Below are positions 1,281 to 37,716 of a stretch of 45,913 nucleotides of DNA, in pieces. The DNA is from Escherichia coli (GTDB taxonomy: Bacteria > Pseudomonadota > Gammaproteobacteria > Enterobacterales > Enterobacteriaceae), in assembly GCF_003334785.1 (NCBI RefSeq), contig NZ_QOWV01000023.1. One strand, given 5' to 3'. How positions within the stretch are numbered: position 1 is the first letter of the stretch; every line of letters starts with the position of its first letter. The notes beneath the pieces are model-generated. The model was not told the DNA's origin. It saw only the letters and a program-made list of their open reading frames with translations, and searched no databases. The translations under genes and the position numbers were made by a program.

Positions 1281-2570
1281 CAGGGAAAGATCACGTAACG
1301 CTACTTTTTTGTACTAAATAATTCGCATTTTATGTTTAAAAATTGAGATATTCCTTATTACCTAAAGCTGTTTTTCATAGCTTATACATGATCAAATACT
1401 CCTTACATAAATAAGGTGAACAAATGGAACTTAAAAAATTGATGGAACATATTTCTATTATTCCCGATTACAGATAAGCCTGGAAAGTAGAGCATAAATT
1501 GTCAGGCATCCTACTATTGACTATTTTTGCCGTTATTTCTGGTGCAGAAAGTTGGGAAGATATAGAGGATTTCGGGGAAACACATCTCGATTTCTTGAAG
1601 CAATATGGTGATTTTGAAAATGGTATTCCTGTTCACGATACTATTGCCAGAGTTGTATCCTGTATCAGTCCTGCAAAATTTCACGAGTGCTTTATTAACT
1701 GGATGCGTGATTGCCATTCATCAAATGATAAAGACGTCATTGCAATTGATGGAAAAACGCTCCGGCACTCTTATGACAAGAGTCGCCGCAGGGGAGCGAT
1801 TCATGTCATTAGTGCGTTCTCAACAATGCACAGTCTGGTCATCGGGCAGATCAAGACGGATAAGAAATCCAATGAGATCACAGCTATCCCTGAACTTCTT
1901 AACATGCTGGATATTAAAGGAAAAATCATCACAACTGATGCGATGGGTTGCCAGAAAGATATTGCAGAGAAGATACAAAAACAGGGAGGTGATTATTTAT
2001 TCGCTGTAAAAGGAAACCAGGGGCGGCTTAATAAAGCCTTTGAGGAAAAATTTCCGCTGAAAGAATTAAATAATCCAGAGCATGACAGTTACGCAATGAG
2101 TGAAAAGAGTCACGGCAGAGAAGAAATCCGTCTTCATATTGTTTGCGATGTCCCTGATGAACTTATTGATTTCACGTTTGAATGGAAAGGACTGAAGAAA
2201 TTATGCGTGGCAGTCTCCTTTCGGTCAATAATAGCAGAACAAAAGAAAGAGCCAGAAATGACGGTCAGATATTATATCAGTTCTGCTGATTTAACCGCAG
2301 AAAAGTTCGCCACAGCAATCCGAAACCACTGGCACGTGGAGAATAAGCTGCACTGGCGTCTGGACGTGGTAATGAATGAAGACGACTGCAAAATAAGAAG
2401 AGGAAACGCCGCAGAATTATTTTCAGGGATACGGCACATCGCTATTAATATTTTAACGAATGATAAGGTATTCAAGGCAGGGTTAAGACGTAAGATGCGA
2501 AAAGCAGCCATGGATAGAAACTATCTCGCGTCAGTCCTTGCGGGGAGCGGGCTTTCGTAATCTTTCCCTG
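1281..2570 (+). mobile_element. H-repeat (ISAs1-family-like) element, copy 1, ~1290 bp with imperfect 15-bp terminal inverted repeats
   Basis: Left end CAGGGAAAGATCACG (1281-1295); right end CGTAATCTTTCCCTG (2556-2570), whose reverse complement is CAGGGAAAGATTACG. Contains one transposase-like ORF. Confidence 0.7.
1424..2560 (+). pseudogene. ybfL: H-repeat-associated transposase-like gene inactivated by an in-frame TAA at 1475-1477; otherwise full length (~378 codons)
   Basis: ATG at 1424 ([17 protein letters not shown]) runs into TAA where copy 2 has CAA; the frame then stays open to 2560 (ORF track 1499..2560). Symbol ybfQ/ybfL from memory, assignment between the two uncertain. Confidence 0.75.
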
Positions 2571-3524
2571 CTTTTTGTACTAAATAATTCGCATTTTATG
2601 TTTAAAAATTGAGATATTCCTTATTACCTGAAGCTGTTTTTTATTGCTTATACATGATCAAATACTTCTTACATAATTAAGGAGAACAAAATGGAACTTA
2701 AAAAATTGATGGAACATATTTCTATTATCCCCGATTACAGACAAGCCTGGAAAGTGGAACATAAATTATCGGATATTCTACTGTTGACTATTTGTGCCGT
2801 TATTTCTGGTGCAGAAGGCTGGGAAGATATAGAGGATTTTGGGGAAACACATCCCGATTTTTTGAAGCAATATGGTGATTTTGAAAATGGTATTCCTGTT
2901 CACGATACCATTGCCAGAGTTGTATCCTGTATCTGTCCTGCGAAATTTCATGAGAGCTTTATTAACTGGATGCTTGACTACCATTCTTCAGATGATAAAG
3001 ACGTCATCGCAATTGATGGAAAAATACACCGGCATTCTTATGACAAGAGTCGCCGTAAGGGAGCGATTCATGTCATTAGTGCGTTCTCAACAATGCACAG
3101 TCTGGTCATCGGACAGATCAAGACGGATAAGAAATCCAATGAGATCACAGCTATCCCTGAACTTCTTAACATGCTGGATATTAAAGGAAAAATCATCACA
3201 ACTGATGCGATGGGTTGCCAGAAAGATATTGCAGAGAAGATACAAAAACAGGGAGGTGATTATTTATTCGCTGTAAAAGGAAACCAGGGGCGGCTAAATA
3301 AAGCCTTCGAGGAAAAATTTCCGCTGAAAGAATTAAATAATCCCAAGCATGACAGTTACGCAATTAGTGAAAAGAGTCACGGCAGAGAAGAAACCCGTCT
3401 TCATATTGTTTGCGATGTCCCTGATGAGCTTATTGATTTCACGTTTGAATAGAAAGGGCAGCTATGGTTAGAAACTACCTGACGTCAGTCCTTGCGGGGA
3501 GCAGGCTTTCGTAAATTTGTCCTG
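2571..3524 (+). mobile_element. H-repeat element, copy 2, head-to-tail with copy 1; lacks the left inverted repeat and ~313 bp of internal 3' sequence
   Basis: Homology to copy 1 begins at 2571 (CTTTTTGTACTAAATAATTCGC, equivalent to copy 1 ~1305) and ends in a degenerate right repeat CGTAAATTTGTCCTG (3510-3524). Confidence 0.65.
2691..3452 (+). CDS. ybfD: H-repeat-associated protein, C-terminally truncated transposase-like ORF (253 aa)
   Basis: Near-identical to copy 1 through ...DFTFE, then TAG at 3450-3452 where copy 1 has TGG, followed by a ~313-bp deletion relative to copy 1. Confidence 0.8.
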
Positions 3525-27703: not shown

Positions 27704-28870
27704 ATGAACTTACATGAATATCAGGCAAAACAACTTTTTGCCCGCTATGGCTTACCAGCACCGGTGGGTTATGCCTGTACTACTCCGCGCGAAGCAGAAG
27801 AAGCCGCTTCAAAAATCGGTGCCGGTCCGTGGGTAGTGAAATGTCAGGTTCACGCTGGTGGCCGCGGTAAAGCGGGCGGTGTGAAAGTTGTAAACAGCAA
27901 AGAAGACATCCGTGCTTTTGCAGAAAACTGGCTGGGCAAGCGTCTGGTAACGTATCAAACAGATGCCAATGGCCAACCGGTTAACCAGATTCTGGTTGAA
28001 GCAGCGACCGATATCGCTAAAGAGCTGTATCTCGGTGCCGTTGTTGACCGTAGTTCCCGTCGTGTGGTCTTTATGGCCTCCACCGAAGGCGGCGTGGAAA
28101 TCGAAAAAGTGGCGGAAGAAACTCCGCACCTGATCCATAAAGTTGCGCTTGATCCGCTGACTGGCCCGATGCCGTATCAGGGACGCGAGCTGGCGTTCAA
28201 ACTGGGTCTGGAAGGTAAACTGGTTCAGCAGTTCACCAAAATCTTCATGGGCCTGGCGACCATTTTCCTGGAGCGCGACCTGGCGTTGATCGAAATCAAC
28301 CCGCTGGTCATCACCAAACAGGGCGATCTGATTTGCCTCGACGGCAAACTGGGCGCTGACGGCAACGCACTGTTCCGCCAGCCTGATCTGCGCGAAATGC
28401 GTGACCAGTCGCAGGAAGATCCGCGTGAAGCACAGGCTGCACAGTGGGAACTGAACTACGTTGCGCTGGACGGTAACATCGGTTGTATGGTTAACGGCGC
28501 AGGTCTGGCGATGGGTACGATGGACATCGTTAAACTGCACGGCGGCGAACCGGCTAACTTCCTTGACGTTGGCGGCGGCGCAACCAAAGAACGTGTAACC
28601 GAAGCGTTCAAAATCATCCTCTCTGACGACAAAGTGAAAGCCGTTCTGGTTAACATCTTCGGCGGTATCGTTCGTTGCGACCTGATCGCTGACGGTATCA
28701 TCGGCGCGGTAGCAGAAGTGGGTGTTAACGTACCGGTCGTGGTACGTCTGGAAGGTAACAACGCCGAACTCGGCGCGAAGAAACTGGCTGACAGCGGCCT
28801 GAATATTATTGCAGCAAAAGGTCTGACGGATGCAGCTCAGCAGGTTGTTGCCGCAGTGGAGGGGAAATAA
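27704..28870 (+). CDS. sucC: Succinyl-CoA synthetase beta subunit
   Basis: 388-aa ORF ([18 protein letters not shown]...), stop overlaps sucD start (TAATG). Confidence 0.97.
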
Positions 28871-32667: not shown

Positions 32668-35301
32668 ATGAAAGCAGTATCTCGCGTTCACATCACCCCG
32701 CATATGCACTGGGATCGAGAGTGGTATTTCACCACCGAAGAGTCACGTATTCTGCTGGTCAATAATATGGAAGAGATCCTGTGCCGACTGGAACAGGACA
32801 ACGAATACAAATATTACGTACTCGACGGGCAAACGGCGATCCTCGAAGATTATTTCGCGGTGAAACCGGAAAACAAAGACCGTGTGAAGAAACAGGTAGA
32901 AGCCGGCAAGTTGATTATCGGCCCCTGGTATACCCAGACCGATACCACGATTGTTTCTGCGGAATCCATCGTCCGTAATCTGATGTACGGAATGCGTGAC
33001 TGCCTCGCGTTTGGCGAGCCGATGAAAATAGGTTATTTACCAGATTCCTTTGGCATGTCCGGGCAACTGCCGCATATCTACAATGGATTTGGCATTACCC
33101 GCACCATGTTCTGGCGCGGATGTTCGGAGCGCCACGGTACTGATAAAACCGAGTTTTTGTGGCAAAGCAGTGACGGTAGCGAAGTGACGGCGCAGGTGCT
33201 GCCGCTGGGCTACGCCATCGGTAAGTACTTACCTGCCGACGAAAACGGATTACGTAAACGCCTCGACAGTTATTTTGACGTGCTGGAAAAAGCGTCTGTA
33301 ACCAAAGAGATTTTGCTGCCGAATGGGCATGACCAGATGCCATTGCAGCAAAATATCTTCGAAGTGATGGATAAGCTACGTGAGATCTACCCTCAACGTA
33401 AGTTTGTGATGAGCCGCTTTGAAGAGGTATTTGAGAAGATCGAAGCGCAGCGAGATAATCTGGCAACCCTGAAAGGGGAATTTATTGATGGCAAATATAT
33501 GCGCGTGCATCGCACCATCGGTTCTACGCGTATGGATATCAAAATTGCCCACGCGCGTATTGAAAATAAGATTGTTAATCTGCTGGAACCGCTGGCAACA
33601 CTGGCCTGGACGTTGGGTTTTGAATACCACCACGGCTTGCTGGAGAAAATGTGGAAAGAGATCTTAAAAAATCATGCCCACGACAGTATCGGCTGCTGCT
33701 GTAGTGACAAAGTTCATCGCGAAATCGTCGCCCGCTTCGAACTGGCTGAAGACATGGCGGATAATCTGATTCGTTTCTACATGCGCAAAATTGCCGACAA
33801 CATGCCGCAGAGCGACGCCGACAAACTCGTCCTGTTTAACCTGATGCCCTGGCCGCGTGAAGAAGTTATCAACACCACTGTGCGGCTGCGCGCCAGCCAG
33901 TTTAATTTGCGGGACGATCGCGGTCAGCCTGTACCGTATTTTATTCGCCATGCCCGTGAGATCGATCCAGGCCTAATCGATCGGCAAATAGTTCATTACG
34001 GTAATTACGATCCCTTTATGGAGTTTGATATACAGATCAACCAGATTGTCCCTTCTATGGGCTATCGCACGCTTTATATCGAAGCGAATCAGCCTGGCAA
34101 CGTAATTGCGGCAAAAAGTGACGCTGAAGGGATACTGGAAAATGCTTTCTGGCAAATTGCGCTCAATGAGGATGGTTCTCTGCAACTGGTAGATAAAGAC
34201 AGCGGTGTGCGCTATGACCGGGTATTGCAAATTGAAGAAAGCTCTGATGATGGTGATGAATATGACTATTCACCCGCAAAAGAAGAGTGGGTAATTACCG
34301 CAGCGAACGCGAAACCGCAATGCGATATTATTCATGAAGCCTGGCAGAGCAGGGCTGTTATCCGCTATGACATGGCAGTGCCGCTCAATTTGTCAGAACG
34401 CAGCGCCCGGCAATCCACTGGCAGAGTAGGGGTGGTGTTGGTTGTCACTCTTAGTCATAACAGCAGGCGTATTGATGTGGATATCAATCTTGATAACCAG
34501 GCTGACGATCATCGCCTTCGTGTCCTGGTCCCTACACCTTTTAACACCGACAGTGTTCTGGCAGATACGCAGTTTGGTTCGCTAACGCGCCCCGTGAACG
34601 ACAGTGCAATGAACAACTGGCAGCAAGAAGGCTGGAAAGAAGCGCCGGTTCCGGTATGGAATATGCTCAACTATGTTGCCTTACAGGAAGGGCGTAACGG
34701 CATGGCTGTCTTTAGCGAAGGGTTACGTGAATTTGAAGTCATCGGTGAAGAGAAGAAAACCTTTGCCATTACGTTGCTGCGTGGCGTGGGCTTACTGGGC
34801 AAAGAAGATCTGCTTTTAAGGCCTGGGCGGCCTTCGGGAATTAAAATGCCAGTCCCGGACTCACAACTACGTGGTCTGCTTTCTTGTCGCCTAAGTTTAT
34901 TGAGTTATACCGGTACGCCAACCGCCGCTGGTGTAGCTCAGCAGGCGCGAGCATGGCTGACTCCAGTACAGTGTTACAACAAAATCCCATGGGATGTGAT
35001 GAAGCTCAACAAAGCCGGATTCAACGTGCCGGAAAGTTATAGTTTGTTGAAAATGCCCCCAGTGGGATGCCTGATAAGCGCACTTAAGAAAGCTGAAGAC
35101 CGACAAGAAGTGATTTTACGGCTGTTTAATCCGGCTGAATCAGCAACCTGTGATGCGACTGTTGCTTTCAGTCGCGAGGTGATTTCTTGCTCAGAAACGA
35201 TGATGGATGAACACATTACCACCGAGGAAAATCAAGGTTCAAATCTATCGGGGCCTTTTTTACCCGGCCAGTCACGGACGTTCAGTTACCGGCTTGCCTG
35301 A
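32668..35301 (+). CDS. mngB: Alpha-mannosidase (GH38) acting on mannosyl-D-glycerate 6-phosphate
   Basis: 877-aa ORF recognised as GH38 alpha-mannosidase. Confidence 0.92.
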
Positions 35302-35799
35302 ATAGCAATCAAACCGAAGCCACATATGCGCGGCCAGATTGTTGACAAAGGGCGCTTTGTTCATGCCGGATACGGCATGAACGCTTTATTCGGTCTACAA
35401 AAGCAGGCAAATTCAATATATTGCAGAGATGATGTAGACACTGGCAAGCGTAGCGCATCAGGTAATTTTGCGTTTATCTTCACTCTCAAGCCACGTATAT
35501 GTGGCTTTATTTTTAACAAAATAATAACCCTGGGTGAGTTAATTATAATATAATTATAAGTTAACTAAATGTTAATATTGGCGGGGTGGATTTATGCCTT
35601 TATTAGTAATCCTGAAACTCTGCGTCGTATTAGCCAGTGACCAAAAAAAGAATTAAGGTCAACCGTGCTGTTTTTGCTTCGTCTCTTTTTATCTTTAATT
35701 GCCAACCGAAACTAATTTCAGCCTTATAACTCACACATTTTAAACATAAATGTCACTAAAGTTACCTTATTGAAACATGATTAACATAATTTGTAGGAA

Positions 35800-35813
35800 T
35801 TGATATTTATCAA
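35800..35813. promoter_or_regulatory. FNR-type binding site (perfect TTGAT-N4-ATCAA) upstream of cydA
   Basis: TTGATATTTATCAA read directly from the sequence. Confidence 0.6.
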
Positions 35814-35851
35814 TGTATAAGTCTTGGAAATGGGCATCAAAAAGAGATAAA

Positions 35852-35865
35852 TTGTTCTCGATCAA
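35852..35865. promoter_or_regulatory. Second FNR-type site (TTGTT-N4-ATCAA), 52 bp downstream of the first
   Basis: TTGTTCTCGATCAA; centre-to-centre spacing of 52 bp fits a tandem FNR arrangement. Confidence 0.5.
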
Positions 35866-36147
35866 ATTGGCTGAAAGGCGGTAATTTAGCTATAAATTGA
35901 TCACCGTCGAAAAATGCAAATTTGCTTCAACAAAAACCTGTTTATTGTAAGGATTTTGCGGCGTAATATATACGTGGGATCAATTTGAGTTTTTATTAAC
36001 ATGTTTGCAACCTTTCTTTACGCCGTTTTTGTGTGCATTCACATGGTATGATGAAAGTGTTCAAACAAATTTCTATTGGGGCATGCGTGTGACCCTTTCT
36101 AACGGGGTTCACTCTCGGAGTCTTCATGCGATGAGCAAGGAGTCATG

Positions 36148-37716
36148 ATGTTAGATATAGTCGAACTGTCGCGCTTACAGTTTGCCTTGACCGCGATGTA
36201 CCACTTCCTTTTTGTGCCACTGACGCTCGGTATGGCGTTCCTGCTGGCCATTATGGAAACGGTCTACGTCCTCTCCGGCAAACAGATTTATAAAGATATG
36301 ACCAAGTTCTGGGGCAAGTTGTTTGGTATCAACTTCGCTCTGGGTGTGGCTACCGGTCTGACCATGGAGTTCCAGTTCGGGACTAACTGGTCTTACTATT
36401 CCCACTATGTAGGGGATATCTTCGGTGCGCCGCTGGCAATCGAAGGTCTGATGGCCTTCTTCCTCGAATCCACCTTTGTAGGTCTGTTCTTCTTCGGTTG
36501 GGATCGTCTGGGTAAAGTTCAGCATATGTGTGTCACCTGGCTGGTGGCGCTCGGTTCAAACCTGTCCGCACTGTGGATTCTGGTTGCGAACGGCTGGATG
36601 CAAAACCCAATCGCGTCCGATTTCAACTTTGAAACTATGCGTATGGAGATGGTGAGCTTCTCCGAGCTGGTGCTTAACCCGGTTGCTCAGGTGAAATTCG
36701 TTCACACTGTAGCGTCTGGTTATGTGACTGGCGCGATGTTCATCCTCGGTATCAGCGCATGGTATATGCTGAAAGGTCGTGACTTCGCCTTCGCTAAACG
36801 CTCCTTTGCTATCGCTGCCAGCTTCGGTATGGCTGCTGTTCTGTCTGTTATTGTTCTGGGTGATGAATCCGGCTACGAAATGGGCGACGTGCAGAAAACC
36901 AAACTGGCTGCTATTGAAGCCGAGTGGGAAACGCAACCTGCGCCTGCTGCCTTTACTCTGTTCGGCATTCCTGATCAGGAAGAGGAGACGAACAAATTTG
37001 CGATTCAGATCCCTTACGCACTGGGCATCATTGCAACGCGTTCCGTGGATACCCCGGTTATCGGCCTGAAAGAGCTGATGGTGCAGCATGAAGAACGCAT
37101 TCGTAACGGGATGAAGGCGTACTCTCTGCTCGAACAACTGCGTTCTGGTTCTACCGACCAGGCGGTTCGTGACCAGTTCAATAGCATGAAGAAAGACCTC
37201 GGTTACGGTCTGCTGCTGAAACGCTATACGCCAAACGTGGCTGATGCGACTGAAGCGCAGATTCAACAGGCAACCAAAGACTCCATCCCGCGTGTAGCGC
37301 CGCTGTACTTTGCGTTCCGTATCATGGTGGCGTGTGGCTTCCTGCTTCTGGCAATCATCGCGCTCTCTTTCTGGAGTGTCATCCGCAACCGCATTGGCGA
37401 GAAAAAATGGCTTCTGCGCGCCGCGCTGTACGGTATTCCGCTGCCGTGGATTGCTGTAGAAGCGGGCTGGTTCGTGGCTGAATATGGCCGCCAACCGTGG
37501 GCTATCGGTGAAGTGCTGCCGACAGCTGTGGCGAACTCGTCACTGACCGCAGGCGATCTCATCTTCTCAATGGTGCTGATTTGCGGCCTGTATACCCTGT
37601 TCCTGGTGGCAGAATTGTTCTTAATGTTCAAGTTTGCACGCCTCGGCCCAAGCAGCCTGAAAACCGGTCGCTATCACTTTGAGCAGTCTTCCACGACTAC
37701 TCAGCCGGCACGCTAA
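36148..37716 (+). CDS. cydA: Cytochrome bd-I ubiquinol oxidase subunit I
   Basis: 522-aa product from [24 protein letters not shown]; ORF track begins one codon earlier (ATGATG). Confidence 0.97.

Follow-up and report, generated by a model that had tools for sequence, protein, structure and literature searches.

The two FNR-type boxes upstream of cydA in the DNA analysed here are almost certainly the FNR-1 and FNR-2 operators already published for the cydABX operon of Escherichia coli K-12, a piece of textbook biology. The window, meaning the whole stretch of 45,913 nucleotides that was analysed, is E. coli K-12 DNA, and the part that holds the boxes was traced to the K-12 cydABX regulatory region by sequence identity and gene context. 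Positions 35302–36160, which comprise the mngB-cydA spacer and the start of cydA (859 bp), aligned at 100% identity with MG1655 NC_000913.3 770612–771470. The closest known system is thus the K-12 cydAB regulatory region itself, an identical locus, base for base, with no difference. Published positions were converted by subtracting 735310 from NC_000913.3 coordinates or 734533 from U00096.2 coordinates. The FNR occupancy, site sequences, direction of regulation, ArcA sites and transcription starts given below are published data mapped onto the window in this way.

Open reading frames near the boxes followed the order mngA (658 aa), mngB (877 aa), cydA, cydB, ybgE, ybgC and tolQ, with mngB flanking the spacer upstream and cydA, cydB, cydX and ybgE downstream of it. 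RefSeq starts cydA at the ATG at 36148, and the ORF lister placed the start one codon earlier, at 36145. Shimada et al. (2014) gave the length of the spacer as 847 bp and reported that it is bound by H-NS, that it has several RpoD peaks and that five promoters are known in it. The GC content of the spacer was 30–36% (35400–36100), compared to ~50% in the flanking genes. The initial annotation had called the entire spacer an 846-bp AT-rich cydA leader. The AT richness held, but "leader" is a misnomer for the whole length, because the mapped 5' UTRs are 288, 254, 245, 172 and 89 nt long and a REP/BIME repeat lies within the spacer; this repeat and the terminator-like hairpin after it assign the first ~210 bp to the end of mngB. 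Adjacency of mngB and cydA was also seen in Enterobacter cloacae, Kluyvera, Superficieibacter and two further Enterobacteriaceae, where MngB was 66–74% identical, which indicates that the arrangement is old and patchily retained and is no peculiarity of K-12.

Table 1. Features of the mngB-cydA spacer and its surroundings, in window coordinates unless a cell says otherwise.
Feature	Position	Strand	Details
mngB-cydA intergenic spacer	35302..36147		846 bp; NC_000913.3 770612-771457, 100% identity
REP/BIME dispersed repeat	35355..35475		downstream of mngB; outside cydA control; at least 40 places per E. coli genome
Terminator-like hairpin and T-run	35488..35513	+	8-bp stem AAGCCACG/TGTGGCTT, then TATTTTT
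Minor distal starts	35429, 35563, 35586	+	Cappable-seq (PMC4782308)
ArcA site 1	35548..35578	+	three direct repeats, core AGTTAACTAAATGTTA; Park et al. 2013 770081-770111, adjoining peak cydA1
ArcA site 2	35727..35778	-	Park et al. 2013 770260-770311, under ChIP-seq peak cydA2
FNR-1 box TTGATATTTATCAA	35800..35813		0 mismatches to TTGAT-N4-ATCAA; centre 35806.5; -53.5 of P1
P1 core	35824..35853	+	-35 TTGGAA (35824-29), 18-bp spacer, -10 TAAATT (35848-53); predicted from start 35860 and conserved TAAATTG block
FNR-2 box TTGTTCTCGATCAA	35852..35865		1 mismatch; centre 35858.5; -1.5 of P1; overlaps P1 -10 and start
P1 start	35860	+	Cappable-seq 770393 (PMC4782308); 288-nt 5' UTR
Main downstream promoter	35867..35903	+	-35 TTGGCT, 18 bp, -10 TATAAA (35891-96); hexamers predicted; GCTATAAATTGATC block conserved
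Minor start	35894	+	Cappable-seq 770427, score 12.2 (PMC4782308)
Third FNR-like box TTGATCACCGTCGA, putative	35897..35910		2 mismatches; centred on dominant start 35903
Dominant start	35903	+	Cappable-seq 770436, score 108.2 (PMC4782308)
Promoter TTTATT-17-TAATAT, start 35976	35941..35976	+	Kim et al. 2012 start 770509; 172-nt 5' UTR; hexamers predicted
ArcA site 3	35993..36023	-	Park et al. 2013 770526-770556, near peak cydA3; ATTAAC..TTTGTAAC block conserved
Minor starts	36059, 36145	+	Cappable-seq (PMC4782308)
Conserved structured leader end	36076..36152	+	alignment, covariance model; function predicted
Covarying hairpin	36085-36116, core 36089-36112	+	within leader end
Second helix, CUUC.UGC with GCA.GGAG	36120-36144	+	covers Shine-Dalgarno AAGGAG (36137-42)
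GGCAU/AUGUU helix	36080-84/36148-52	+	possible pairing at start codon
cydA (cytochrome bd-I subunit I)	36148..37716	+	RefSeq annotation b0733; ORF
Regulatory-region haplotypes compared	window 35302-36080; WB61 locus 2572-3376; MP1 locus 2442-3141

A sequence scan found both FNR boxes at the positions and with the 52-bp centre-to-centre spacing that had been annotated, 341.5 bp (FNR-1) and 289.5 bp (FNR-2) upstream of the cydA ATG. A pair with 50–52 bp spacing and at most three mismatches in total occurred once in the 45.9-kb window. Both boxes are listed in Table S6 of Myers et al. 2013 (PMC3688515), at 770333 (14.9 bits, window 35800) and 770385 (14.05 bits, window 35852), both above the PatSer threshold and both flagged at an FNR ChIP-seq peak. 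The summit of this peak, at 770404/5 (window 35871–2), was present in all data-set columns, and ChIP-seq cannot separate two sites 52 bp apart. Table 1 of the same study, citing Cotter et al. 1997 and Govantes et al. 2000, lists cydAB as directly and partly repressed by FNR and gives one site position only (-53.5); its expression tables likewise class cydAB as FNR-repressed, with a ratio of 0.32. Lack of FNR occupancy had been named in advance as the result that would overturn the annotated boxes, and the published ChIP-seq data show occupancy; the expected FNR-linked, oxygen-responsive repression of cytochrome bd is also on record, in partial form. Motif, published occupancy, published regulation and conservation all identify both boxes as FNR operators.

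A perfect FNR consensus, TTGATCGAAATCAA, was also seen inside sucC at 28286–28299. In Table S6 of Myers et al. 2013 (PMC3688515), this box (762819, 16.5 bits) was not bound in vivo and overlapped H-NS and Fis enrichment, so that a perfect match to the consensus is by itself no guarantee of occupancy.

For the transcription starts, a published Cappable-seq list (PMC4782308; plus strand) was mapped to the window, and the predicted core hexamers were assigned from the mapped starts. The start at 35860 places the box centres at exactly -53.5 and -1.5, the former in agreement with the published value, so that the annotated promoter-overlapping dimer could be assigned to FNR-2. The -1.5 position and the distinct roles given to FNR-1 and FNR-2 come from our coordinate mapping and from citing papers. 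Relative to the downstream starts at 35903 and 35976, FNR-1 is centred at -96.5 and -169.5 and FNR-2 at -44.5 and -117.5, respectively. The coordinate of the 35976 start, 770509, also appears in Myers et al. 2013 (PMC3688515) as a sigma-70 ChIP peak with anaerobic enrichment. Multiple promoters had been anticipated from the length and AT richness of the spacer, and five (P1–P5) are indeed published, according to papers that cite Cotter et al. 1997, Govantes et al. 2000 and Lynch and Lin 1996. The core elements of the P1, 35903 and 35976 promoters fell in blocks conserved across genera. A generic promoter scan was uninformative, with three promoter-like matches against 2.6 expected; the mapped promoters are weak matches to the consensus.

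To assess conservation, we used 80 CydA-encoding loci, one genome per species, and scanned 900 bp of upstream DNA for box positions and 600 bp for pair counts and shuffles. The pair was present upstream of cydA in 21 of 21 Enterobacteriaceae loci, while 0.01 loci were expected from shuffled sequences, and it was found within 600 bp of cydA in four of seven Yersiniaceae and 11 of 19 Vibrionaceae. None of the 80 coding controls (600 bp of cydA coding sequence) contained a pair. The Enterobacteriaceae with the pair include Citrobacter, Enterobacter, Kluyvera, Shimwellia, Cedecea, Pluralibacter, Mangrovibacter and Phytobacter, and in this family the boxes lay about 345 and 293 bp ahead of the ATG, with a spacing of 52 bp. 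The spacing was 51 bp in Yersinia and Arsenophonus and 50–51 bp in Vibrio and Photobacterium, where the boxes lay at about -272 and -222. Alignment of the upstream regions from 20 Enterobacteriaceae showed almost no variation in the half-sites of FNR-1; in FNR-2, the TTG and GATCAAA were invariant and the bases between them drifted. The FNR-1 box was kept in all three E. coli haplotypes. The retention of a 50–52 bp spacing from Escherichia to Vibrio suggests that the two dimers act together.

A third FNR-like box lies over the dominant start, mirroring the position of FNR-2 over P1. It was conserved in Enterobacteriaceae, with a single mismatch in the Citrobacter version. Its absence from Table S6 of Myers et al. 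2013 places it below the threshold of that matrix, and we regard it as a candidate site.

FNR activates transcription from -41.5 at class II promoters and from near -61.5, -71.5, -82.5 and -92.5 at class I promoters, and neither box occupies such a position. FNR-1, at -53.5 from P1, is off the activating helical face. The annotated activating-position dimer was therefore not borne out, since FNR-1 falls outside the canonical activating positions and the net effect of FNR is repression. It remains improbable that FNR-1 activates one of the promoters and that FNR-2 alone represses: measured from the 35903 start the two boxes come near, but not on, the class I and class II positions, and cydAB expression rises anaerobically despite FNR (Myers et al. 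2013, PMC3688515), but this rise is attributed to ArcA. Much less probable still is that the boxes serve mainly another regulator of the CRP/FNR family, such as CRP, or an unrelated one, with incidental FNR occupancy. A Cra site for cydAB is reported in vitro, and the conserved third box has no assigned regulator. However, Cra binding was unseen by ChIP-exo, the half-sites TTGAT/ATCAA are of the FNR type and not of the CRP type TGTGA/TCACA, the boxes reach 14–15 bits with the FNR matrix and are covered by an FNR ChIP-seq peak, and loss of both the ChIP signal and the regulation in an fnr mutant has already been reported.

The modest enrichment of single boxes leaves some room for functionless chance palindromes in AT-rich DNA: six boxes with at most one mismatch were found in the 45.9-kb window against 2.1 expected, a count reached in 3 of 100 shuffles, and the sucC example shows that a perfect box can stay unbound. 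Nevertheless, conservation of the pair far beyond chance, in its spacing and its distance from the ATG, together with ChIP-seq occupancy at the cydA boxes, refutes this explanation, to which we give practically no weight. The FNR-1/FNR-2 operator pair is the reading followed below.

Under anaerobiosis, [4Fe-4S]-FNR dimers bind both FNR-1 and FNR-2. The FNR-2 box covers the -10 element and start of P1, so that its dimer would sterically occlude this promoter, and it abuts the -35 hexamer of the main downstream promoter, which serves the 35894 and 35903 starts. FNR-1, 52 bp or five helical turns upstream, is on the same face of the DNA, and the two dimers together would lower transcription from the promoter cluster. 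Repression by FNR is partial, and FNR-2 at -44.5 from the dominant start is not in a classic occlusion position; as that start is 35903 and not P1, sequence alone leaves the repression of the downstream promoters unexplained. Phospho-ArcA at three sites in the spacer counters silencing of the AT-rich DNA by H-NS, and the FNR and ArcA/H-NS inputs combined give the peak of cydAB expression in microaerobic conditions.

Two other FNR-controlled genes resemble this arrangement. In the yfiD (grcA) promoter, the tandem FNR boxes are separated by 53 bp; one is a perfect TTGAT-N4-ATCAA and the other is of the TTGTT type. At yfiD, the upstream dimer down-modulates expression and the proximal dimer activates as a class II site, whereas the proximal dimer at cydAB P1 lies over the start and the net effect is repression. 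The ndh gene, like cydAB, is an aerobic respiratory gene repressed via two FNR dimers. The ndh sites, at about -50.5 and -94.5, precede the core promoter, and so differ from those of cydAB in lying off the start and in their spacing of about 44 bp rather than 52 bp. The yfiD boxes are at 2714579 and 2714632 in Table S6 of Myers et al. 2013 (PMC3688515), and ndh has a strong FNR ChIP-seq site in the same study. The cydAB promoter itself has served other work as a test case for separating ChIP-seq sites that lie close together.

Park et al. 2013 (PMC3798270) reported three ArcA ChIP-seq regions upstream of cydA, each with a predicted site. Our own scan of the window for the ArcA direct-repeat consensus matched only ArcA site 1, and this site contains or closely precedes the minor starts at 35563 and 35586. 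The TTAACA-type half-sites of ArcA site 2 were conserved across 20 Enterobacteriaceae sequences. Activation of cydAB by ArcA is attributed to relief of H-NS repression, and binding of H-NS to the spacer is published. The nucleoid-protein binding proposed for the spacer from its length and AT richness is thus already documented (Shimada et al. 2014). An IS1 insertion (777 bp extra) was observed in the spacer of E. coli LR-31 and QL57EC. In LR-31, the IS1 (546–1320 of its locus) is ~245 bp past the mngB stop, at about window position 35547, at or beside ArcA site 1 and the distal starts, and the FNR/P1 region is intact.

At the mngB-proximal end, the REP/BIME belongs to a dispersed repeat family, recovered in at least 40 places per genome across 5426 E. 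coli genomes. It is flanked by an 18-nt inverted repeat (35317–35334 and 35490–35507), whose downstream arm forms part of the terminator-like hairpin. Judged from its sequence, this hairpin is likely the mngB terminator, and it looks as if the REP/BIME had been inserted into or beside it. A search for small ORFs in the spacer, as the annotation had recommended, gave three candidates, none of which looks real. The 75-aa ORF at 35326–35553 (+) overlaps the BIME, has no NCBIfam match and is absent in sequence from ~41% of genomes; it is carried as the hypothetical protein WP_001324497.1 in some RefSeq genomes, is unannotated in K-12, and is probably a spurious call. The 47-aa ORF at 36005–36148 and a 43-aa ORF on the reverse strand were likewise rejected as genes, with no family match and a poorly conserved stretch beneath them (48–52% identity between E. 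coli haplotypes, with a 4-base indel). An Rfam scan of 34800–36600 returned one sub-threshold match inside the BIME, to ES036 (21.9 bits against a gathering score of 37.6), which we treated as chance.

The opposite end of the spacer was strongly conserved. The last ~85 nt before the ATG were almost invariant in Enterobacteriaceae, and the final ~45 nt were conserved across Enterobacterales. Within this stretch, a hairpin occurred at the same place in every species with differing sequence. When 15 Enterobacteriaceae were aligned by sequence only, 9 of the 11 hairpin pairs showed two-sided changes with pairing kept, a number reached in none of 500 shuffles; slid controls gave 2–6 pairs. A covariance model built from the 15-sequence alignment identified a single match per locus in 40 sources, made up of 38 Enterobacterales loci, the window and a second E. 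coli allele, and each match ended a short way into cydA. All 11 pairs covaried once the sequences had been fitted to this model, a procedure biased towards the structure. The G-U pairs on the sense strand indicate an RNA structure rather than a DNA palindrome. The Shine-Dalgarno helix and the GGCAU/AUGUU helix were invariant, so that covariation neither supports nor refutes them. Support for the structure comes from covariation and not from stability in K-12, because the K-12 leader alone had a folding z-score of 0.08 and its minimum-energy fold used an alternative pairing. In a plain alignment of all Enterobacterales the variable hairpin was misaligned, and RNAalifold recovered nothing but the invariant helix from it; the hairpin required a family-restricted alignment together with the covariance model. 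The suggestion of a long structured 5' UTR accordingly holds for part of it, 36076–36152.

No Rfam family matched 36076–36152 at E-values up to 1, and no description of a cydA leader element was found in the searchable literature. We tentatively suggest, as a possibility somewhat short of an even chance, that this stretch is an undescribed cis-acting RNA element that sets translation of cytochrome bd-I or mRNA stability, and a possible target of CsrA or a small RNA. In Salmonella, CsrA is reported to activate cydABX translation 3.5-fold, and the leader end contains two GGA motifs 22 nt apart (36117–19 and 36139–41). Direct CsrA binding to the cydA leader was not found in the searchable literature, and the Salmonella effect is a lead only. 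The helix that pairs the GGAG of the ribosome-binding site and the two GGA motifs liken the cydA leader to Shine-Dalgarno-sequestering and CsrA-responsive leaders; it differs from them in having no Rfam match and an invariant ribosome-binding-site helix.

To compare the regulatory region within the species, we searched the spacer against all 5426 complete E. coli genomes, every one of which gave a match. In 3177 genomes (~59%, K-12 type) the identity was at least 99%, nearly always over the full length, while 2234 genomes (~41%, other type) matched only the cydA-proximal ~370 bp, at 80–90% identity. The upstream neighbour also differed, being mngRAB in the K-12 type, a methylaspartate mutase cluster in WB61, and sucD with a TPR protein gene in MP1. 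The CydA accession WP_000884361.1 was common to both haplotypes, and between the cydA start and the end of cydB their DNA was 97–100% identical. Unconstrained promoter segments were 44–80% identical between haplotypes, and the 35891–35965 stretch, which holds the core elements of the 35903 and 35976 promoters, was 92–100% identical. Overall, haplotype-to-haplotype identity was 70%, about as far as either lies from Citrobacter or Enterobacter. Both haplotypes keep the FNR boxes, the box spacing, the downstream promoters and the structured leader. A search of the accessible literature for promoter polymorphism of cydA found nothing relevant.

As cydAB is among the best-studied oxygen-regulated promoters, the two flagged boxes add nothing new to its biology. 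They serve as a positive control, in which a reading of nothing but the letters recovered two experimentally validated operators and the right distance between them. Cytochrome bd matters for colonisation of the gut and for nitric oxide resistance. The structured leader, if true, would add a post-transcriptional layer to its control. Moreover, ~41% of sequenced E. coli carry a regulatory haplotype strongly unlike that of K-12, the strain in which all of the regulation has been worked out, and the diverged haplotypes may give the phylogroups different oxygen-response curves.
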